Source: Treponema sp. (GTDB taxonomy: Bacteria > Spirochaetota > Spirochaetia > Treponematales > Treponemataceae). From it: a stretch of DNA of 64,000 nt. The notes beneath the pieces were generated by a model. The model was not told the DNA's origin. It saw only the letters and a list, made by a program, of their open reading frames with translations, and made no database searches. Both the position numbers and the translations under genes were made by a program. Where the stretch lies: contig JAKSTP010000002.1 of NCBI GenBank assembly GCA_024402505.1, positions 63,530-127,529 on the forward strand, written 5' to 3'. Shown one piece after another: positions 19,935-63,723 of this stretch (position 1 is the first letter of the stretch; each line of letters starts with the position of its first letter).

Positions 19935-20828
19935 TTATTTTCCTTCGTTTTCAATGTGCATTTTTTCAAGATTTGCCATGATTGCGTCAACAGTTTTCTG
20001 TTTTGGATCAGGTTCATCGGCTGGCAGTGATTCAAGAATCTTGTTGCGGAAGTCCTTACAGTCGATTACAGGGCTTGCAGTAAGTGTAACTTTGTCCTGG
20101 GCTACCACATCCATAATCATATTTTCAGGGCATTCAGGGTTGAAGCGCAGACAGTTTCCGTTGATTGAAACCAGAATCATTTTGTCAAAAAGGCGAAGAT
20201 AGCTGTCGATTTCCCGGAGACCTTTCTTTGTTTCAGGTTTGCCTGGACGATAGCGTGTGCCGCTTGGGAATACAAGAATTACCTGGCCGCGTTTTTTACA
20301 GGCGTCCATTGCACGCATGGCAGCAAAGTTGATTTTGCGGGCCCGTTTTTCTTCTTCTTCTTTTTCTTCCTGAGAGATTTCTTTTGCTCCAACTGCATCA
20401 AGGCTTCGTGTAGGATAGATTACAACTCGTGTAAAACATTCTGCAAATGCACGTACAGCAGGATCAGCTTCGTTCAGTTTCATACCGGCAACGGCAACGA
20501 TTTTTTTTGAGAAGTCTTTTGACCAGTCTTCACCATATTTGTCCAGCATGTATACGATTTCAGGAAGGTCCAGGTTTGTGTAGTGTTCCATAAGGATAAG
20601 CCCGGATTTACCATTCTGAACTTCGTCGTAGAAAGCTTTGAAATTTTCAACGGCGTTCAATCCGCTTCCAGGAAGAAGGTTGTCATCAAGAAGGGTGAAC
20701 ATGTATTTTTGAATATCTAAGTTTGCTTCTTCATAAACTGAAGTTTCATCGATTTTGGCGGCGGCTCGAGATTTCTTAGCCATCTCTTTAATCATGCTGC
20801 CGTATTTTCCAGCCAATGTGTTGTCCAT
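19935..20828 (-). CDS. Glycerol-3-phosphate/lysophospholipid acyltransferase (PlsC-like)
   Basis: HxxxxD motif (EHYTNLD) and FPSGTR motif. Confidence 0.8.
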   Translation of the reverse strand: MDNTLAGKYGSMIKEMAKKSRAAAKIDETSVYEEANLDIQKYMFTLLDDNLLPGSGLNAVENFKAFYDEVQNGKSGLILMEHYTNLDLPEIVYMLDKYGEDWSKDFSKKIVAVAGMKLNEADPAVRAFAECFTRVVIYPTRSLDAVGAKEISQEEKEEEEKRARKINFAAMRAMDACKKRGQVILVFPSGTRYRPGKPETKKGLREIDSYLRLFDKMILVSINGNCLRFNPECPENMIMDVVAQDKVTLTASPVIDCKDFRNKILESLPADEPDPKQKTVDAIMANLEKMHIENEGK

Positions 20829-20983: not shown

Positions 20984-21527
20984 GGCTACGGGGGTTGGGG
21001 CAGCGGGAGATGGGTGCCACAGGCCTCGGGTAGTGGCAACGGGGTTGGGGGCAGCTGGCCTCGGGGGACGGCAACGGGTCGTTGGGCAGTGGGCTTCGCG
21101 GGATGGTGGCGGGTCGTTTTACGCAGTGGGGTTCGTTGCGAGTGGCCTCAGGGGATGGCAACGGGGTTGGGGGCAGTTGAGTTCAGGTTGTGGCAACGGG
21201 GTTGGGTGCCGCGGGCCTCGCGGGAGTGGCAACGGGTCGTTGGGGCGGCGGGCTTCGGGTGGCGGCGACGGGGTTGGGTGCCGCGGGCCTCGGGGGGGCG
21301 GCAACTGGCGTTGGGCGACTGGCCTCGGGGGCGGCAGCGGGGTGTGTGCAGCTGGTCTCGCCGGGCGGCAACTGGCGTTGGAGGCAACGTACCTCGGGGG
21401 GGTGGCAGCTGGCGTTGGGTGCAGTGGGGCTCGGGTTGTGGCAACGGGGTTGGGTGCCGCGGGCCTCGGGGGGCGGCAGCGGAGTGTGTGCAGCTGGCCT
21501 CGCGGGGCGGCAACGGGCGTTGGGGGG
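20984..21527 (+). repeat. G-rich degenerate minisatellite, ~15 units of 33-37 bp
   Basis: Consensus GGCAACGGGGTTGGGTGCCGCGGGCCTCGGGGGG(T/C); unit starts at 20999, 21035, 21070, 21105, 21157, 21192, 21228, 21264, 21300, 21333, 21367, 21404, 21440, 21475, 21509. Confidence 0.9.
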
Positions 21528-21538
21528 CAAATTCGGAC

Positions 21539-22076
21539 TTTTACGGAAATCGCTGCATATTTCCCTAAATTCTCCGTAGGAATTTGGAAATTTTCGGGAA
21601 GTTTTTTGAAAAAAATGTAAAACTACGAAGAATTTTCCATTTCCTAAGGATTTCTCCGTAATTTTTGTAACAGAAACCGTCTGTTTCCCACTGAAATGGC
21701 AATTTTTTACGGAGAGTGTGCCAAAACTGAGAATCTCTCCGTAAATTTTCAGAAACAATATTCAAAATTTTTAGCTAAATCTAAAATTTTACGTAGAATT
21801 TTGCTGTTTTTTAGGATTCTCCGTAATTCCTGTTGCAAAAGCCAACTGTTTTTCGGTGAAATGGCAATATTTACGGAGAGTGTGCCAAATCTGAGATTCT
21901 CTACGTAAATATTCAAAAACATCCATCAAAATTGTTGGAAAAACAATAATATTACGGAGATTTTTACATTTTCCCCCAAACTCTACGTAGAAAATTGAGC
22001 TTTTACGGGAAATTTTTTGAAAACACTAGAGAAACTACGGAGAATTTCTCATTTTCTGAAGAACTCTCCGTAGTTT
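21539..22076. repeat. Periodic array of 7 palindromic elements (TACGGAGA-N~20-TCTCCGTA), 81-84 bp period
   Basis: TACG...CGTA spans of 36-37 bp at 21542-21578, 21624-21660, 21708-21743, 21790-21825, 21872-21907, 21953-21989, 22036-22072; extra half-site at 22004. Confidence 0.9.
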
Positions 22077-22127: not shown

Positions 22128-22979
22128 TCAGGAAATGGCGCACAGGTCCCGCACAACTTCGCCGGCAATGAGAAGACCTGCGACGCTCGGAACAAAACTG
22201 CAACTGGCAGGGGCCGGCCCGTTGCCCTTGAGAGGCACTTTCTCCGCAACAGCCCCCTCGGTAACACAGTTCGCACAGCCCGCTGTACCATTGGCAGCAC
22301 AGTTCGCACCGCCCTCGATAGCCCCGCTCAGCGCAACGGCAGTGCCCTCGGTAACGCAGTCCCCCACAACGGCCCCGCCATTGGTAGCACAGTTTACAGG
22401 GGGTTCGTCGCTCCAGAGGACTTTTACTTTGGTAATGTGGCGGGCTTTTAGTTCGCGGCGCATTACTCTGGCCAATGGGCACACGCTGGTCTTTGAAATG
22501 TCCGTTATTCTGAAACGATCAGCATAAAGCTTGTTGCCGGTGCCCATACTTGAAATAACTGGAACACCTGCTGCCTTTGCGGCCGAAATAATGGCAATTT
22601 TGGCAGTCACCGTATCAATGGCATCAATAACATAATCAAAGACAGAAAAATCAAAGGCAGAGGCATTTTCCGGCAGAAAAAAAGTCTGGTGTGGAACAAT
22701 GTTTATATCAGGATTTATATCTCGGGCACGGATAGCGGCCACTTCAACTTTTGGCATGCCAATGTTGCTCTGAAGGGCAATGAGCTGTCGGTTCAGATTG
22801 CTTTCCGCAACAGTATCGTTATCAACAATGTGGATGGTACCTACGCCGGCGCGCACTAAAGCCTCCAGTGTAAAAGAACCTACGCCGCCAACTCCGAACA
22901 AAAGGATTTTCGCGCCGGCCAAACGGTCAATTGCCGCTTTTCCCAAAAGTCGCTGGGTTCTCGAAAACATTTCCGACAT
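22128..22979 (-). CDS. tcdA: tRNA threonylcarbamoyladenosine dehydratase (ThiF/E1-like) with a Cys-rich insertion
   Basis: GVGGVGS, DNDTVAESNLNRQ, DAIDTVTAK, SSMGTGNK, CPLARVMRREL, SCSFVPSVAG. Confidence 0.9.
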   Translation of the reverse strand: MSEMFSRTQRLLGKAAIDRLAGAKILLFGVGGVGSFTLEALVRAGVGTIHIVDNDTVAESNLNRQLIALQSNIGMPKVEVAAIRARDINPDINIVPHQTFFLPENASAFDFSVFDYVIDAIDTVTAKIAIISAAKAAGVPVISSMGTGNKLYADRFRITDISKTSVCPLARVMRRELKARHITKVKVLWSDEPPVNCATNGGAVVGDCVTEGTAVALSGAIEGGANCAANGTAGCANCVTEGAVAEKVPLKGNGPAPASCSFVPSVAGLLIAGEVVRDLCAIS

Positions 22980-25423: not shown

Positions 25424-25460
25424 TACGGAGCAAAAACACAAAGTTTGCCAAATCTCCGTA
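25424..25460. repeat. Solitary copy of the TACG-N29-CGTA palindromic element
   Basis: TACGGAGCAAAAACACAAAGTTTGCCAAATCTCCGTA, 37 bp, same geometry as the 21.5-22.1 kb array. Confidence 0.8.
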
Positions 25461-25570: not shown

Positions 25571-26341
25571 TTGAAAATGTTGCGTTGCAGAAAGTTTATC
25601 ATTTTAATCATTCTATTCCTGGCTTTTTCTCCTCTTCACGCCCAATTCAATCAGCTGGATTCAAATAAAGGTTTTAATCTTTATGCCACAGGAACTCTTT
25701 CTCCATTTATAAACGATATCCGCATCAATAAAAAAAATCTTGTGGGAACTACGGAACTTACCCTTACAAGCCCCTACTTTTCGGCCGTGTCGGGACTCTG
25801 TTTTCAGGACCGCCAGTTTGACCTTATGTGGGGAATTGAAGGCAAATATCACATCAATAACTTTACTTTCGGCGCCGTGGCAATAAGCAATATGGCCATT
25901 TACAAAAAACTTGGCCGGGAATTCGACATTGCCTTCCTGCCCTTTGCCGACCTTAAAACCCGGGAACGCAACTTCTGGCAGATCAACCTTAAATTCGGAG
26001 CGGGCCTGCTTTTCAGCCAGATTCAGTACAAGAAAAACGGCACAAAAGTGTGGAGCAAAATGGAAAAAAACAATTCCTATCTTTGCGACATTTTCATTGC
26101 CAAACAGTTTTTTAACCGCAACAAAGCCTGGTTTGAACTGCGCACCTATGATCTTTATGACTACAACTACGGACTTTCCGCATCATTCTCCTTTGGCTAC
26201 AGTTACCAGATTCTGCCGCCACTGCTGGCCTACTTTGAGCTGGACTTAAACGAGATTGCCTTCTTTACCACCTTGGGTACTCTGCGAAATATTTCTTTTA
26301 ATTTTGGTGCTACCTGGCGCCTTGGATCATGGAGGGGTTAA
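25571..26341 (+). CDS. Exported protein, probable outer-membrane beta-barrel
   Basis: Signal peptide (PLHA/Q); alternating aromatic beta-strands; C-terminal FNFGATWRL. Confidence 0.5.
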   Translation: MKMLRCRKFIILIILFLAFSPLHAQFNQLDSNKGFNLYATGTLSPFINDIRINKKNLVGTTELTLTSPYFSAVSGLCFQDRQFDLMWGIEGKYHINNFTFGAVAISNMAIYKKLGREFDIAFLPFADLKTRERNFWQINLKFGAGLLFSQIQYKKNGTKVWSKMEKNNSYLCDIFIAKQFFNRNKAWFELRTYDLYDYNYGLSASFSFGYSYQILPPLLAYFELDLNEIAFFTTLGTLRNISFNFGATWRLGSWRG

Positions 26342-45760: not shown

Positions 45761-46453
45761 TTAGTTTAATCCCAGAACCTGCATCAGATCTGCATAATTT
45801 GAAAACCTGATGTCAGCAAGTTCATTTTCTTTATTTTTTCTTTTTCGTGCTTTCGATTTTGATGTAAACCAGGCACTTTTCATGCCGGCTGCCTTAGATC
45901 CCACTACGTCGTACTTGTAACTGTTTCCAACGTAAAGGATATTTTCGGGCTTGATACCCAGTTTTTCTGCCATTTTTACAAAGGCGATTGGATTTGGTTT
46001 AAGGGCGCCACATTCCTCTGTTCCCATGGAAAGATCGGCCATAGCCTTAATGCCCCAAAGTTCACCCTTCTGTTCCGGCGGAAAGTCCGAAAGAATTGCT
46101 ACTTTCAAACCCTTTTCTTTAATCTTTGCCACACATTCCACCGCATTCTTGCAAGGAGTTATGCGCAGGAAAAACTTTTTAAGTCCCTGATAAACAATCC
46201 TGTCCAAAGCTTCCTGAGCCTTTTCCGGAGTTGTTTTCAGGCGGCGTGCCATGTATTCTGCCTGTATACGGGAAAAATCGCCCTCTGCCTTATCTTTGCG
46301 GAGTGCACTACGAACGAGACCATAATGTAAAAAGAAATGATTATGTGCCAGAAAATGGAAAACGATCCTGGTGTTAAGTTTCCAGTTTTCGTAAAGAGTT
46401 CCATCAATATCAAAGGCAACAGCTTGAATGTCGCCCAATTCACCCATTTTCAA
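45761..46453 (-). CDS. HAD family hydrolase
   Basis: FDIDGTLY, ILSD, KPNP, YVGNSYKYDVVG motifs. Confidence 0.9.
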   Translation of the reverse strand: MKMGELGDIQAVAFDIDGTLYENWKLNTRIVFHFLAHNHFFLHYGLVRSALRKDKAEGDFSRIQAEYMARRLKTTPEKAQEALDRIVYQGLKKFFLRITPCKNAVECVAKIKEKGLKVAILSDFPPEQKGELWGIKAMADLSMGTEECGALKPNPIAFVKMAEKLGIKPENILYVGNSYKYDVVGSKAAGMKSAWFTSKSKARKRKNKENELADIRFSNYADLMQVLGLN

Positions 46454-46520
46454 TATTTTCCCCTATACCCTACCATTATACATCAATCAAGAAAAAAAAT
46501 ATACAACACCTTCCCCTTAT

Positions 46521-46549
46521 TTGACATTTTCCCTTTTTTTTGATAAAGT
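46521..46549 (+). promoter_or_regulatory. Sigma70 promoter of tRNA-Ala
   Basis: TTGACA-N17-TAAAGT with extended -10 TG, 13 bp before the tRNA. Confidence 0.8.
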
Positions 46550-46562
46550 AATCTTACATTTC

Positions 46563-46636
46563 GGGGGTGTAGCTCACCTGGCTAGAGCGTTTGAATGGCA
46601 TTCAAAAGGTAGTCGGTTCAAGTCCGATCATCTCCA
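46563..46636 (+). tRNA. tRNA-Ala(GGC); CCA not encoded
   Basis: Cloverleaf GGGGGTG/CATCTCC acceptor stem with G3:U70, D-arm GCTC/GAGC, anticodon arm TTTGA-ATGGCAT-TCAAA, T-arm GTCGG-TTCAAGT-CCGAT. Confidence 0.97.
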
Positions 46637-46640
46637 CAAG

Positions 46641-46678
46641 AAAAAAAAAGGAATCTGCAAAGCAGGTTCCTTTTTTTT
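46641..46678 (+). terminator. Bidirectional intrinsic terminator after the tRNA
   Basis: A-run-GGAATCTGC-AAA-GCAGGTTCC-T8. Confidence 0.88.
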
Positions 46679-46707
46679 GTTTAAAACTTATTTCTATGTC
46701 CACAATA

Positions 46708-46736
46708 AGGGTGGTTGAGCCTGTCGAAACCACCTT
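46708..46736. repeat. REP-like palindrome
   Basis: GGTGGTT-GAGCCTGTCGA-AACCACC; resembles GAGCCTGTCGAA-type REP elements (from recall). Confidence 0.65.
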
Positions 46737-46756
46737 CAGCAAAACCCTACCTGTTT

Positions 46757-46774
46757 ATCGGACTTGAACCGACT
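46757..46774 (-). other. Exact 18-bp inverted copy of the tRNA-Ala T-arm (att-like site)
   Basis: ATCGGACTTGAACCGACT is the reverse complement of AGTCGGTTCAAGTCCGAT at 46611-46628. Confidence 0.85.
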
Positions 46775-47055
46775 TAACCATTGTCTTTTTGATTAACAAG
46801 GCCATTAATCTCGTTTATTATGGATTCTTCCGATAAGCAATGTCTTTTCTTTAGATAATCCCAGTCTTCGGGATAGTACTCTGAATCTTCTGGACCTATT
46901 TCATAACCTTTAATTAATTTGAGTTTACCATCTTCTAAAGATACCAGAATGCTAATCTCATGAGTAAAATGCAATATACCATTTTGGTACGACGCATCCA
47001 GTTCTACTAGAAATAAATCTGATTTATTTCTAGTAAGTGAAATAATATTTGCCAT
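46774..47055 (-). CDS. Small hypothetical protein (93 aa)
   Basis: ATG-started AT-rich ORF; its TAA abuts the tRNA-like fragment; no recognised motif. Confidence 0.6.
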   Translation of the reverse strand: MANIISLTRNKSDLFLVELDASYQNGILHFTHEISILVSLEDGKLKLIKGYEIGPEDSEYYPEDWDYLKKRHCLSEESIINEINGLVNQKDNG

Positions 47056-47189
47056 AAAAAAACAATGAGCAGTTTAACTATAATAATCAAGGATCGTCGA
47101 TCGTATAGAATTTTTAAAAAAAAGAATCCCCCCGGAAGGTAAGTCGTCAAACAAAAAATCTCGCCAGGCAGTTTTACCAACCATACAAA

Positions 47190-47241
47190 TTCTCTATGTC
47201 ATTCCATTGTTCTCTATGTCATTTTAATATATAATGACATA
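47190..47241. promoter_or_regulatory. Putative operator upstream of fic
   Basis: TTCTCTATGTCATT direct repeat at 47190 and 47210; TATGTCATT-N9-AATGACATA inverted repeat. Confidence 0.55.
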
Positions 47242-47271
47242 AAGATTTAATTCTTGGGGTAGAGATACATA

Positions 47272-48324
47272 ATGCATAATTTTGAATATAACGAAAACGC
47301 AAAAAAATTGCTGACACCAGAAATTGTTCAGATGTTGAGCACGATCTATGAACATAAAGGCAGACAGCAGCTTTTTGTTGAAGCAAAGAAAGATGAACTA
47401 AATTCTTTGATGGAAATTGCCAAAATCCAAAGTACAAAATCATCAAACAGAATTGAGGGGATTTTCACAACAGATAAACGACTGAAAGAATTGATGTCAC
47501 AAAAATCAGAACCGCGAAACAGAAATGAGCAGGAAATCTCAGGTTACAGGGACGTTCTTTCTACAATTCATGAAAGCTATGATTTTATTTCTCCGACCTC
47601 AAACATAATCCAGCAGCTTCATAGAGATTTGTATTCATATAACAAAAATGGTTTTGGCGGCAAATTCAAATCAAACGATAACATAATTGCAGAAACAGAT
47701 GACAATGGTGTTCAGAAAGTAAGATTTGCTCCTGTACCTGCATTTGAAACAGAAGAAGCAATGCGTCAAATGATTGAATCATTTTTGAAAGCTTGGAACA
47801 GTAATAAAACAGATAAACTTCTCTTAATCCCGATGTTCATTTTGGATTTTCTGTGCATCCATCCTTTTGATGATGGCAATGGAAGAATGAGTAGACTTCT
47901 TACACTTCTTTTATTCTATAGAGCAGGATTCATTGTCGGAAAATACATAAGTCTTGAAATGCTCATTGAATCTGCAAAAGAAACTTACTATGAAGCACTT
48001 CAGGACTGTTCCTATGGCTGGCACGAAAGCAAAAATCTGTATGAACCATTTGTAAAATATTATCTTGGAATTCTGATAAAAGCATCAAATGAATTTGAAA
48101 GCCGCATTGAATATCTTTCGAGCAGTAAGATATCAAAACCAGAAAGAATTAAGCGTTTGATTCAAAATACAGTCGGTAAAATAAATAAAAAAGAAATTCT
48201 GGAAAAATGTCCTGACATCAGCACCAAAACTGTGGAACGAACTTTAGCGGAACTTGTCAAAGAAGGGGTAATAGAAAAAGTCGGAGCAAGTTCAGCAACA
48301 GCTTATGTTTGGATTCAGAAATAG
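47272..48324 (+). CDS. fic: Fic family protein (class II, with inhibitory helix) plus C-terminal HTH
   Basis: Canonical HPFDDGNGRMSR motif; N-terminal SNRIEG matches (S/T)xxxE(G/N); wHTH-like C-terminus. Confidence 0.93.
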   Translation: MHNFEYNENAKKLLTPEIVQMLSTIYEHKGRQQLFVEAKKDELNSLMEIAKIQSTKSSNRIEGIFTTDKRLKELMSQKSEPRNRNEQEISGYRDVLSTIHESYDFISPTSNIIQQLHRDLYSYNKNGFGGKFKSNDNIIAETDDNGVQKVRFAPVPAFETEEAMRQMIESFLKAWNSNKTDKLLLIPMFILDFLCIHPFDDGNGRMSRLLTLLLFYRAGFIVGKYISLEMLIESAKETYYEALQDCSYGWHESKNLYEPFVKYYLGILIKASNEFESRIEYLSSSKISKPERIKRLIQNTVGKINKKEILEKCPDISTKTVERTLAELVKEGVIEKVGASSATAYVWIQK

Positions 48325-49017: not shown

Positions 49018-49083
49018 ATTGCTATTATGATAAACCATACAACTTGGGCTGGCAACTTAACATACATGTGTGTTACAGTTGTT

Positions 49084-49166
49084 CCTTTAAAAATGACATA
49101 AATCTATAATTTTTACCTTTGAAAAATGACAATGTAATATATGTTTTACCTTTGAAAATTGACAAT
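49084..49166 (+). promoter_or_regulatory. Three phased direct repeats overlapping the promoter of the AAA ATPase
   Basis: CCTTT(G)AAAA(A/T)TGACA at 49084, 49116 and 49149; TTGAAA-N16-TACAAT with extended -10 at 49152-49179. Confidence 0.6.
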
Positions 49167-49198
49167 ACTATGATACAATTCAGGCAGGAGATTCTGTC

Positions 49199-50596
49199 AT
49201 GTTACAAAGAGAAATCTGGAATGAATTAATAGCCTGGAAAGAACGAAAACATCATCCTCTTATAATCAAAGGGTTAAGACAGATAGGAAAAACCTTCATC
49301 GTTAAACATTTTGGTGAAATTTATTATGAAAATGTTGTCTATCTAGATTTAAGAGCAAATAAAACTGTTCACAAAGCCTTTGATGGTAATTTTGATGTTA
49401 ATCAGATGATTCTTTCAATAACATCAACCGATTCTTCAGCCCGTTTTATTCCAGGAAAAACTCTTTTGATTTTAGATGAAATTCAAGATTGTACAAATGC
49501 AAGAAGTTCCCTTAAGTATTGGGATATGGATGGCCGATTTGATGTCATTTGTACAGGTAGTTTTCTTGGCGTAAAAGGATTCAGAAATCCATATGTTCGG
49601 GGTATTCCTGTTGGGTATGAAGAGCAAATAACGATGTATCCGCTAACATTTAAAGAGTTCCTTGATAACACAGGCATGGATGAAAAAGTTTTTGAATATG
49701 TTTCAAAATCTTTATCTGCTAAAACAATGATAGATCCGACGGTTCATGACAGCATAAGAAATTTATACTTGCAGTATTTAATTGTTGGTGGAATGCCAGA
49801 TGTTGTTCTAAAATTCTTTGAAACTCACGATTTGAATCAGGTTCGGGAAATTCAAAAAAGAATTCTGCAATCAATACGAGATGATTTTGGTCGCTATAAG
49901 GATAAGAATGGAAATGATGCTGTAAATGAGGTTTTAAAGCTTAGGGCAGAGGCTTGTCTTAATTCACTTCCGTCACAACTGGCCAAAGAATACAAGAAAT
50001 TCCAGTTCTGCTTAGTTGATGTAAAAGGTCATTCACCGGAAAAAGCAGATGGACTTCAATATCTGGAAGATGTTGGTCTTGTTGTCAGGGCATTTAATAC
50101 AAGGGAACTTGTTTATCCATTGAATGCTGCTAAGATTTCAACAGAGTTTAAAGTTTTTTATATTGATACTGGGCTTTTGATTTCTCAATTGGGTGAGGAT
50201 GTACCTGCAAAAATTTTAGCTGGTGATTTAGGACCTTATAAAGGAGCTATTGCAGAAAATATGGTTGCCGCAAGTTTTGCAAAAGAAGATATGGATTTAT
50301 ATTATTTTCATGCATCAAGCGGATCTCCAGAACTGGATTTTTTGTATGAAGAAAATGGTTCAGTTGGAATTATAGAATGTAAAGCTTCCAATAACAGAGC
50401 AACCAGTATGAAATTTGTTCTTGCAAATGAAAAAAGATTTGGAAAACATTCTGCAGTTAAGATTGCCGATTCTAATGTTGGAGGTGGAGAAAATTTTGAT
50501 ACCTATCCTCTTTATTCATTGGGTTTTATGCAGAAAAAACAGACAAAAAATATTGTGGATGTTATTGATGTAAAGAATATAACTGTGCCTGAATAA
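49199..50596 (+). CDS. AAA_14 + DUF4143 ATP-binding protein
   Basis: GLRQIGKT, LDEIQ, CTGS, LQYLIVGGMPDVV, KVFYIDTGLL, ELDFL, IECKA. Confidence 0.9.
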   Translation: MLQREIWNELIAWKERKHHPLIIKGLRQIGKTFIVKHFGEIYYENVVYLDLRANKTVHKAFDGNFDVNQMILSITSTDSSARFIPGKTLLILDEIQDCTNARSSLKYWDMDGRFDVICTGSFLGVKGFRNPYVRGIPVGYEEQITMYPLTFKEFLDNTGMDEKVFEYVSKSLSAKTMIDPTVHDSIRNLYLQYLIVGGMPDVVLKFFETHDLNQVREIQKRILQSIRDDFGRYKDKNGNDAVNEVLKLRAEACLNSLPSQLAKEYKKFQFCLVDVKGHSPEKADGLQYLEDVGLVVRAFNTRELVYPLNAAKISTEFKVFYIDTGLLISQLGEDVPAKILAGDLGPYKGAIAENMVAASFAKEDMDLYYFHASSGSPELDFLYEENGSVGIIECKASNNRATSMKFVLANEKRFGKHSAVKIADSNVGGGENFDTYPLYSLGFMQKKQTKNIVDVIDVKNITVPE

Positions 50597-62807: not shown

Positions 62808-63527
62808 TTACGCCAGATATTTTTCCACCATTGTTTGCACGAACTTTGGGTTTAGTGGAAGCTCAGATTTTTCCATTGTGAAGATAAAATTTTCCCCAAG
62901 GTTGTAGCCACTTTCTTGAATTTTCTTGATTTTACTGATGGCTTTTGAGATGTAGTCGGGGTCATCCATAAGTCCAAAATGTTCCCAATAGACTTCCTGA
63001 CGGGTACGCAGATTGAGGCAGCAAAAATCCGGGTAGATAGTTTTACCATCTTTCAGTTCCAGAGACATTTCGTATTTGTATGGAATTTTCATGCGGGATA
63101 AAGTATCTGCAATTATGACTTCCGATTTTGAGCGGACTTTTTCTCCATTTGCGGTAAAAAATTCCGGAGAGTTGAAGAAGTCATTTCCAGATTTTTTATT
63201 GTGCACCAATAATTTTTTTATAGCTGCAAGTTCTCTTTTGGCGGAGCGCAGGATCTTTTCGTCATAGTCGTATTGAATTAGTTGTCTGGCAAAATCGTCC
63301 TGATTACGGGGAAGATATTTTCCAGTTGTGTCATTCTTTTTTGTGATGAGGTAAAACTGCATGGTGTTTTTGTGTGGGACAATTCTAATTTTGCCTGCTT
63401 TTTTCAGCTGGGATTTTTCATTTATCGTGTTTTGCTTTGATTTAATGATTTTTTCAAGCTGGATTTTTCTTTTTTCCAATTCTGCTTCATAAGTTACAGG
63501 TGGTAATGCTTCAAATTTTCTTTTCAT
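62808..63527 (-). CDS. Hypothetical protein with a C-terminal PD-(D/E)XK/Vsr/DUF559-like nuclease domain
   Basis: Basic N-terminal coiled region; GEKVRSKSEVIIADTL...IPYKYE...IYPDF...YWEHFG; RBS AAGGAG upstream. Confidence 0.6.
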   Translation of the reverse strand: MKRKFEALPPVTYEAELEKRKIQLEKIIKSKQNTINEKSQLKKAGKIRIVPHKNTMQFYLITKKNDTTGKYLPRNQDDFARQLIQYDYDEKILRSAKRELAAIKKLLVHNKKSGNDFFNSPEFFTANGEKVRSKSEVIIADTLSRMKIPYKYEMSLELKDGKTIYPDFCCLNLRTRQEVYWEHFGLMDDPDYISKAISKIKKIQESGYNLGENFIFTMEKSELPLNPKFVQTMVEKYLA

Positions 63528-63601
63528 AAGACTCCTTGCAAAGGCTTTGTGTTGTTGTGTGTGGTGTGTGCCTTCTGATTTTTGGTAGTTTTCTGAAAAG
63601 G

Positions 63602-63723
63602 TACGGATAAATGTGTGGAAATTGTATTTTTAGCCGTATGATTTTGGGAAACTCACCTGTTTGGGAAGTGTAAAATTCTCATTTTGTACGAATAAATTTG
63701 CAAAAACCGCATTTTTATTCGTA
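63602..63723. repeat. Two more TACG-N29-CGTA palindromic elements, 85 bp apart
   Basis: TACGGATAAA...TTTAGCCGTA (63602-63638) and TACGAATAAA...TTTATTCGTA (63687-63723), each 37 bp. Confidence 0.8.

Follow-up and report, generated by a model that had tools for sequence, protein, structure and literature searches.

A helically phased array of split palindromes in an intergenic gap of a Treponema genome, and a predicted nuclease-fold gene family that accompanies related arrays

The DNA considered here is a 64-kb stretch of a Treponema sp. genome (assembly GCA_024402505.1, contig JAKSTP010000002.1, forward-strand positions 63,530 to 127,529), which is referred to below as the window and is numbered from its first base. 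Between two minus-strand genes of the window lies an intergenic gap of 1.3 kb, the left half of which is taken up by a G-rich tandem repeat and the right half by an array of seven split palindromes. The array belongs to a family of helically phased site arrays that had not been described before, and a family of predicted nuclease-fold proteins, here called X, is proposed as its partner. The components of the locus are the following.

21539-22076, no strand: phased array of seven class-1 split palindromes, 81.5-83.5 bp apart centre to centre, about 8 helical turns
21542-21578, no strand: unit 1, 37 bp, arms TACGGAAA / TCTCCGTA
21624-21660, no strand: unit 2, 37 bp, arms TACGAAGA / TCTCCGTA
21708-21743, no strand: unit 3, 36 bp, perfect arms TACGGAGA / TCTCCGTA
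21790-21825, no strand: unit 4, 36 bp, arms TACGTAGA / TCTCCGTA
21872-21907, no strand: unit 5, 36 bp, arms TACGGAGA / TCTACGTA
21953-21989, no strand: unit 6, 37 bp, arms TACGGAGA / TCTACGTA
22036-22072, no strand: unit 7, 37 bp, perfect arms
19935-20828, minus strand: left flanking gene, acyltransferase-like, given for context only
21006-21525, plus strand: G-rich 35-bp tandem repeat, left half of the same gap, variable between strains
22128-22979, minus strand: right flanking gene, ThiF family, given for context only

The general form of the array unit is TACGGAGA-N20/21-TCTCCGTA, with a length of 36-37 bp and periods of 81-84 bp. A first-pass annotation of this sequence had recorded the seven starts listed above together with outer spans of 37, 37, 36, 36, 36, 37 and 37 bp and periods of 82, 84, 82, 82, 81 and 83 bp; on recheck the starts matched exactly, and the spans and periods were likewise reproduced exactly. 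In unit 5, related strains carry a C at 21903, by which TCTCCGTA is restored, and a unit similar to unit 7 is found at a different locus in related strains. The higher-order 164-bp repeat that had been described for units 2+3 and 4+5 is real, and a repeat finder places it at 77-82% identity: the identity is 82% between units 3 and 5 including their flanks, and 77% between the spacer that separates units 2 and 3 and the one that separates units 4 and 5. Units 1+2 and units 6+7 are 73-75% alike, which gives the layout A-B-C-B-C-A-B. The units thus fall into A, B and C classes that are 73-82% alike, from which it follows that duplication did occur.

Elsewhere in the window stand a solo unit of the same class and a pair of units of a second class, the latter upstream of an X-family gene.

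25424-25460, no strand: solo class-1 unit, 37 bp, TACGGAGC...TCTCCGTA, intergenic, about 110 bp upstream of the gene at 25571
62808-63527, minus strand: unannotated gene of the X family, with a predicted PD-(D/E)XK nuclease fold and without a Pfam family
63602-63638, no strand: class-2 unit, TACGGATA...TAGCCGTA, with the start of the X gene 74 bp downstream
63687-63723, no strand: class-2 unit, TACGAATA...TATTCGTA, 85 bp from the unit at 63602

The arms of the class-2 pair are TACGGATA and TACGAATA, where class 1 has TACGGAGA. Matches to TACG-N28..38-CGTA number 11 in the window, compared with 1.85 ± 1.27 in 100 dinucleotide shuffles, none of which reaches 11.

Conservation in this family is confined to the arms and the distances. 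Across 136 distinct units, arm positions 1-8 are nearly invariant, while from position 9 inward the complementarity of the two sides does not exceed the expectation from composition and at some positions is lower; the two arms within a unit agree no better than the arms of different units. The half-sites are two inverted 8-bp TACGGAGA sequences lying 28-29 bp apart centre to centre, and the 20-21 bp between them are free to vary. The interior being devoid of complementarity, the unit is to be regarded as an inverted pair of half-sites at a fixed distance and not as an extended hairpin. Lachnospiraceae arrays have spacers of 16 bp and interiors of 21 bp whose lengths are fixed and whose sequences are unrelated, and the spacers form 79 families. 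The lists of substitutions between strains, which are incomplete, hold one change in an arm (where the consensus is restored), about 10 in interiors and about 12 in spacers. The earlier claim that the arm sequence and the arm-to-arm distance are conserved as the interiors drift thus holds across the 136 units. The array had also been set apart from simple tandem repeats and from CRISPR (clustered regularly interspaced short palindromic repeats), rightly in both cases: across genomes only arms and distances are shared among unrelated interiors and spacers, and the units have 16 of their 36-37 positions in common and are palindromic, not direct repeats.

The spacing of the units is quantised. 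Centre-to-centre distances fall into classes of 52-54, 60-63, 73-75, 82-84, 92-94 and 105.5 bp, with nothing between them, and these classes correspond to 5-10 turns of about 10.5 bp, with spacers that are unrelated in sequence. Different classes are mixed within single arrays, as in one with distances of 52, 63, 53, 53 and 60 bp and another with 75 and 53 bp. When one value is taken for each of the 79 spacer families, a period of 10.5 bp gives a resultant length R of 0.83 and a mean offset of -0.1 bp. None of the six short-range classes deviates by more than about 1.5 bp from a whole number of turns between 5 and 10, an agreement for which our own arithmetic gives p of about 1e-3 or less under a uniform null. 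In the window array and that of Candidatus Treponema equifaecale, AA/TT periodicity, examined over the range of 5-20 bp, peaks at 10.25-10.5 bp, a value to be read with the proviso that a tandem array can show only harmonics of its unit. The persistence of quantised spacing despite unrelated spacers indicates a constraint on double-stranded DNA, and the helical phasing suggested by the first-pass annotation is borne out at the family level, in steps of about 10.5 bp. It is probable that the array is a phased protein-recognition array on duplex DNA.

An exact scan for TACGGAGA-N20/21-TCTCCGTA, with one genome per species, returned at least 119 loci; among the matches listed, most are single chance matches, often within open reading frames. 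An array with an 84-bp period is present in Ca. T. equifaecale, and Lachnospiraceae carry arrays at many loci, in Ca. Pseudolachnospira avium, three Acetatifactor metagenome-assembled genomes (MAGs) and others. The periods in Lachnospiraceae are mostly 52-53 bp, with further values of 60-63, 73-75, 83-84 and 92-94 bp, and the arrays usually comprise 5-7 units, are intergenic and often stand at contig ends. The genes around the arrays are co-directional in 12 cases, divergent in two and convergent in two, which was judged to represent no preference. Two candidate arrays were set aside, one in Leifsonia (140-bp period) as a chance match amplified by near-identical tandem duplication and one in a Bacteroidetes MAG (41-bp period) as near-identical tandem copies of a chance match. 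Viral contigs held no arrays but single matches only, most of which represent one conserved coding sequence, and no arrays were found on plasmids, where the search with X gave a domain-level match only. A full-text literature search for the arm sequences returned primers only, and in the literature on DUF4143, COG1373 and palindromic intergenic repeats of Treponema nothing on function was found.

The strongest link of these arrays to a gene is that to X, which also proved to be the single two-member pair in an all-versus-all clustering of the genes next to arrays. Array and X are adjacent in 5/5 independent loci from two phyla, including the window gene at 62808-63527 with its two class-2 units upstream. 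Two of the loci were fetched by the identity of the X protein alone: L255 (Treponema sp.) has four units upstream of the gene, and L257 has five upstream and two downstream. Both show arms of the form TACGG(A/C)TAAA, units of 36-37 bp, periods of 84-85 and 93-95 bp, and a last unit ending 33 bp before the X start codon. Two others were fetched by the motif alone. In L037 (Acetatifactor), a TACGGAGA array of six units is followed after 137 bp by X, with another array, of five units, downstream; in L098 (Lachnospiraceae), the distance from an array of five or more units to X is 58 bp. About 130 other loci held no comparable arrays. The arm class tracks the X lineage, TACGGAGA accompanying the X of Lachnospiraceae and TACGGMTAAA that of the sampled Treponema, and the genomes with X-adjacent arrays also hold dispersed arrays without a neighbouring X. 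The first-pass annotation had proposed a binding or nuclease-target array or an iteration of elements like the repetitive extragenic palindromes (REPs); this reading gains support from arrays that flank a nuclease-fold gene in two phyla and from others that are dispersed as REPs are. As a separate observation, a gene with AAA-ATPase_like and PDDEXK_9 domains in the Lachnospiraceae MAG RUI574 is bracketed by TACGGAGA arrays (L080 746-843 and 3047-3272; L070 663-827), which sit within direct repeats of about 170 bp; the arrangement is possibly a coincidence.

Homologues of X are hypothetical proteins of about 275 amino acids (aa) from Treponema, Fibrobacter, Muribaculaceae and others, mostly located on very short contigs. 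A profile search at E<=1e-30 delineates a family of 3,177 cluster representatives (50% identity), all of 250-340 aa, and X has no sequence match in Pfam, NCBIfam or PDB. The AlphaFold model of X, with a predicted local distance difference test score (pLDDT) of 91.5, contains two long N-terminal helices, of 25 and 40 residues, together with a small beta domain; the C-terminal part is an alpha/beta domain. Foldseek neighbours of this C-terminal domain are Bax1, DrdV, the R2 endonuclease domain and MunI, and the domain is, as modelled, a PD-(D/E)XK nuclease fold. Invariant residues of X comprise VRSKSE (E173), PDF (D204), WEH (E219, H220) and K236. The C-terminal nuclease domain of the PADLOC candidate PDC-S68, a large superfamily 1 (SF1) helicase, matches X with E values of 1e-23 to 1e-27, and in viral contigs the homologues of X are only the C-terminal nuclease domain on large helicases. 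The X of the window carries an in-frame internal deletion of 37 aa, by which the conserved R126, P132 and W144 (P0271 numbering) are missing and the frame is kept. These 37 residues are present in all homologues, and the window X may be a decaying copy.

The array itself varies among close relatives. Strains whose flanking acyltransferase is 94% identical at the protein level lack both the ThiF gene and the array, in place of which they carry an EamA fragment, with or without a NUDIX/HD gene. Strain L239 has kept the end of ThiF, remnants and a single unit like unit 6, which is the only unit kept. A metagenomic strain retains the array and lacks the G-rich repeat (a 550-bp skip); a 165-bp back-joint in the same strain would fit an array with another number of units. 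The G-rich repeat is rearranged in a second related strain. In more distantly related Treponema, JC4 among them, the locus is devoid of an array, and the raw-read runs X19 and X20 contained no reads of this organism. Being absent or altered in close strains, the array is not a conserved organiser of this locus.

The findings above raise the hypothesis that a protein of the X family recognises the units at 21539-22076 and that the array is an orphan cluster of such sites, in an organisation resembling that of REPs and bacterial interspersed mosaic elements (BIMEs) with the gene of their REP-associated tyrosine transposase (RAYT). A probability of roughly 0.55 is assigned to this reading. An X dimer would bind each unit with one nuclease-fold domain per half-site, the helices serving as a spacer, and the 40-residue helix of each subunit would be comparable in scale with the 29 bp (about 98 Å) to be bridged. 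The phasing would place neighbouring X dimers on one face of the duplex and so allow cooperative assembly. An array at its own X gene would overlap the promoter and could mediate autoregulation, and orphan arrays may be gained and lost through the spread of the repeat system itself or through recombination, as REPs and BIMEs are around a RAYT gene. The window array is regarded as an orphan because no X is adjacent to it, as is the case for most arrays in Lachnospiraceae. Because the window X is accompanied by arms of class 2 (TACGGMTAAA) and has lost an internal segment, the genome is expected to encode, at another place, a second X paralogue with specificity for TACGGAGA.

Several points weigh against assigning the array to X. 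The genes that flank it are acyltransferase-like and ThiF, with no X beside it, and the only X in the 64 kb lies 41 kb away, is associated with the other arm class and bears the 37-aa deletion. The X loci inspected amount to only five independent ones, and no classical DNA-binding domain can be recognised in X. Were X active as a nuclease, its dozens of target sites in the chromosome would have to be protected in some way, and no such protection is known. Identical arms are also found in promoters of a Spirochaete clade of AAA_14-DUF4143 genes, so that a different protein could read TACGGAGA.

This last point is the root of one alternative, in which the array is bound by an ATPase-winged helix-turn-helix-nuclease of the CGGAGAT clade of AAA_14-DUF4143 (COG1373, PDC-S01) and acts as an assembly or titration platform like the DnaA-box clusters. 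In Spirochaete MAGs, a single perfect TACGGAGAT-N18-ATCTCCGTA stands 16-57 bp upstream of the AAA_14-DUF4143 start codon at 8 loci or more (at least 8), and the palindrome of this clade has a 36-bp span and 8-bp arms identical to those of the array. A clade-specific palindrome of 31-41 bp is centred about 35-55 bp upstream of the start in 51/78 metagenomic homologues, as against 5-6% in controls. The family, listed by PADLOC as candidate PDC-S01, is modelled (pLDDT 92.5) with an ORC/STAND-like ATPase, a winged helix and an intact PD-(D/E)XK domain in which E281, D313, E326 and K328 are invariant. The genes of the clade, however, carry single sites and never arrays, the roughly 60 kb surrounding three of them contain no additional TACGGAGA sites, and no gene of the clade occurs in the window or at about 30 Lachnospiraceae array loci. 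Position 9 of the operator is T in 94% of cases whereas the array half-sites prefer A, a likelihood test on positions 9-15 performed no better than its control, and the DUF4143 gene of the window is preceded by different, direct repeats. A search for the ATPase in reads of related strains found only short paralogue patches. The DUF4143 operator was demoted as the source of the array, in view of its single sites, the lack of co-location with arrays and the differing half-site extension; the explanation is thus an unlikely one, and the identity of the arms is an unexplained coincidence. More room is left, although it too is rather unlikely, for a phased site array of another protein that binds DNA, for instance a regulator or one associated with the nucleoid, to which X would be merely adjacent or by which it would be regulated. 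Geometry, phasing and arm-only conservation call for a ruler along the duplex and name no protein, and the want of a known DNA-binding domain in X leaves a place for such a factor; the change of arm class together with the X lineage, and an adjacency of array and X that is tight and repeated in two phyla, argue against it.

Two further explanations dispense with recognition of duplex DNA by a protein or with function altogether. The units might be hairpins in single-stranded DNA or RNA, whether REP-type with a Y1 transposase, RNA stabilisers or processing sites, and the region does fold better than shuffles (z = -5.6 and -5.3), in arrays that lie mostly between co-directional genes and could thus be transcribed. 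The gain in folding is, however, equal on both strands, as any palindrome would give; the stem measures only 8 bp with a loop of 20-21 nt, complementarity and covariation are lacking past the invariant arms, and both the 10.5-bp quantisation and the fixed loop length would be meaningless for a hairpin. Rfam scans gave no match at the 18 array loci scanned and only tRNA-Ala in the window, and no terminator-like sites were found in the gap, all of which renders the hairpin explanation very unlikely. The least credible explanation, and one already disfavoured, is that of a neutral, decaying tandem duplication with incidental palindromic ends. It accords with the A/B/C unit classes and with the dispensability of the array in close strains, but it fails to account for the recurrence of arms and geometry, around interiors and spacers of unrelated sequence, in other genera and a different phylum, or for arms that resist substitution between strains.

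Compared with known systems, the array functions like a REPtron or a centromere-type site array and belongs to neither family. REPs and BIMEs together with the RAYT gene are reportedly termed a 'REPtron'. The likeness lies in a protein gene flanked by its cognate palindromic repeats, with further copies scattered in intergenic DNA, in a repeat sequence that changes with the gene between lineages, and in a copy number that varies between strains. The partner of the present arrays has a predicted PD-(D/E)XK fold, however, whereas that of REPs has an HUH/Y1 transposase fold, and the units are split palindromes with a non-complementary interior of 20-21 bp, set in tandem arrays phased by whole helical turns, whereas REPs are GC-rich hairpins with a 5' GTAG. 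No GC-rich stem with 5' GT[AG]G was found in the units, in which complementarity ends after 8 bp and the interior is AT-rich, and none of the annotated array neighbours is a RAYT-type gene, no RAYT profile search having been run. The sopC site of the F plasmid consists of 12 repeats of 43 bp, and SopB binds the short inverted repeat that each of them contains. It resembles the array in its tandem, even units, each with an inverted repeat, which are presumed to nucleate a cooperative protein assembly. It differs in that the present arrays are chromosomal, occur at many loci, and have half-sites 29 bp apart with unrelated sequences between sites, and in that no parA/parB lies next to the window array. 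A ParB/SopB centromere is not indicated by the housekeeping neighbours, by viral contigs without arrays or by an X that is not on plasmids.

DnaA-box clusters are found at oriC and datA, and dnaA is autoregulated. They share with the X-associated arrays the placement of sites in the gene's own promoter, additional clusters elsewhere and a dependence of oligomer assembly on phasing, while protein, site and half-site geometry all differ and the present arrays have no link to replication. In the Neisseria intergenic mosaic elements (NIMEs), dRS3 inverted repeats alternate with RS spacer families, and the partner is a prophage IS110-type recombinase. The alternation of short conserved inverted repeats with spacer families in intergenic arrays is common to both systems; dRS3, in contrast, measures 20 bp (6-N8-6), and to our knowledge no helical quantisation is known for it. 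The AAA_14-DUF4143 operators are similar in span (31-41 bp) and in arms (8-10 bp), one clade having exactly TACGGAGAT arms and the 36-bp span, but each of them stands alone, at about -35 to -55 relative to the start codon, and never in arrays, with a different extended half-site, and no such gene stands beside the array. Integron attC sites (RYYYAAC...GTTRRRY) do not fit termini of TACG/CGTA and the 45-47 bp between units, which hold no cassette. A ToxI-like type III toxin-antitoxin locus is likewise at odds with units 45-47 bp apart and differing in their interiors, with no ToxN-type gene adjacent. What the array does share with the X-associated family is the 36-37 bp unit, the TACG...CGTA ends, the 8-bp arms and the integral-turn spacing.

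Within the gap, the G-rich repeat lies directly to the left of the array and comprises about 11 copies with 71-75% matches and G-runs on the plus strand; no relation between it and the palindromes was shown. Small open reading frames that cross the array received no support as coding sequence, and a promoter scan gave two weak TTGAAA-type matches inside the array, not meaningfully above expectation. The window array is preceded by TTGGGGGG. Similarly, a G8 run and a perfect palindrome of 34 bp, GTAGGTATATATGTTATATTACATATATACCTAC, stand directly in front of the Ca. T. equifaecale array, at L039 230-275. In the ThiF gene, the 3' portion (22128-22400) is a C-rich repetitive extension, which is shorter in L239 and shows a 33-bp skip in the metagenomic strain.

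Farther along the window, the cumulative GC skew reaches its minimum at about 46000-47500, beside the tRNA-Ala gene (46563-46637). Past this gene the GC content falls from about 0.43 to about 0.35, and the Fic, DUF4143 and GNAT genes downstream look accessory. The AAA_14-DUF4143 gene of the window (49199-50596, plus strand) lies in this low-GC stretch after tRNA-Ala, and its upstream region (49080-49180) contains two direct repeats TTTTACCTTTGAAAAWTGACAAT and no palindrome. In other genomes, AAA_14-DUF4143 genes cluster with paralogues, restriction-modification genes and IS110 elements (L120-L199, L200-L207, L251-L253). Solo operators of the DUF4143 type, with similar interiors and no intact gene, were seen at L008 7200-7235, L024 2486-2521 and L044 6335-6370; in L024 an apparent short 5' gene remnant follows the palindrome, which suggests gene loss that left the palindrome behind.

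In a broader and tentative proposal, which is held with less than even confidence, X and the phased arrays would represent a new class of chromosomal repeat-protein system that has spread horizontally among gut anaerobes, namely Treponema, Lachnospiraceae and probably Fibrobacter and Bacteroidales. The PD-(D/E)XK-fold protein would read two half-sites by a fixed 29-bp ruler and would build or maintain arrays in exact helical-turn steps, either by copying and inserting units at a distance measured from a site already bound, or as a chromosome-structuring or defence-related nucleoprotein filament. The present work provides a concrete, testable DNA partner for a large protein family that lacks annotation, having neither a Pfam nor an NCBIfam model. 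The architecture, in which half-sites at a fixed distance of 29 bp are arrayed at multiples of the helical repeat and the rest is free to vary, was not reported in the literature searched. The clade-specific promoter palindromes of COG1373 make the DNA specificity of that family testable as well. If X binds as proposed, the arrays would be a natural example of ruler-based site recognition, and the system would also account for the breakage of these genomes into short contigs at such loci.
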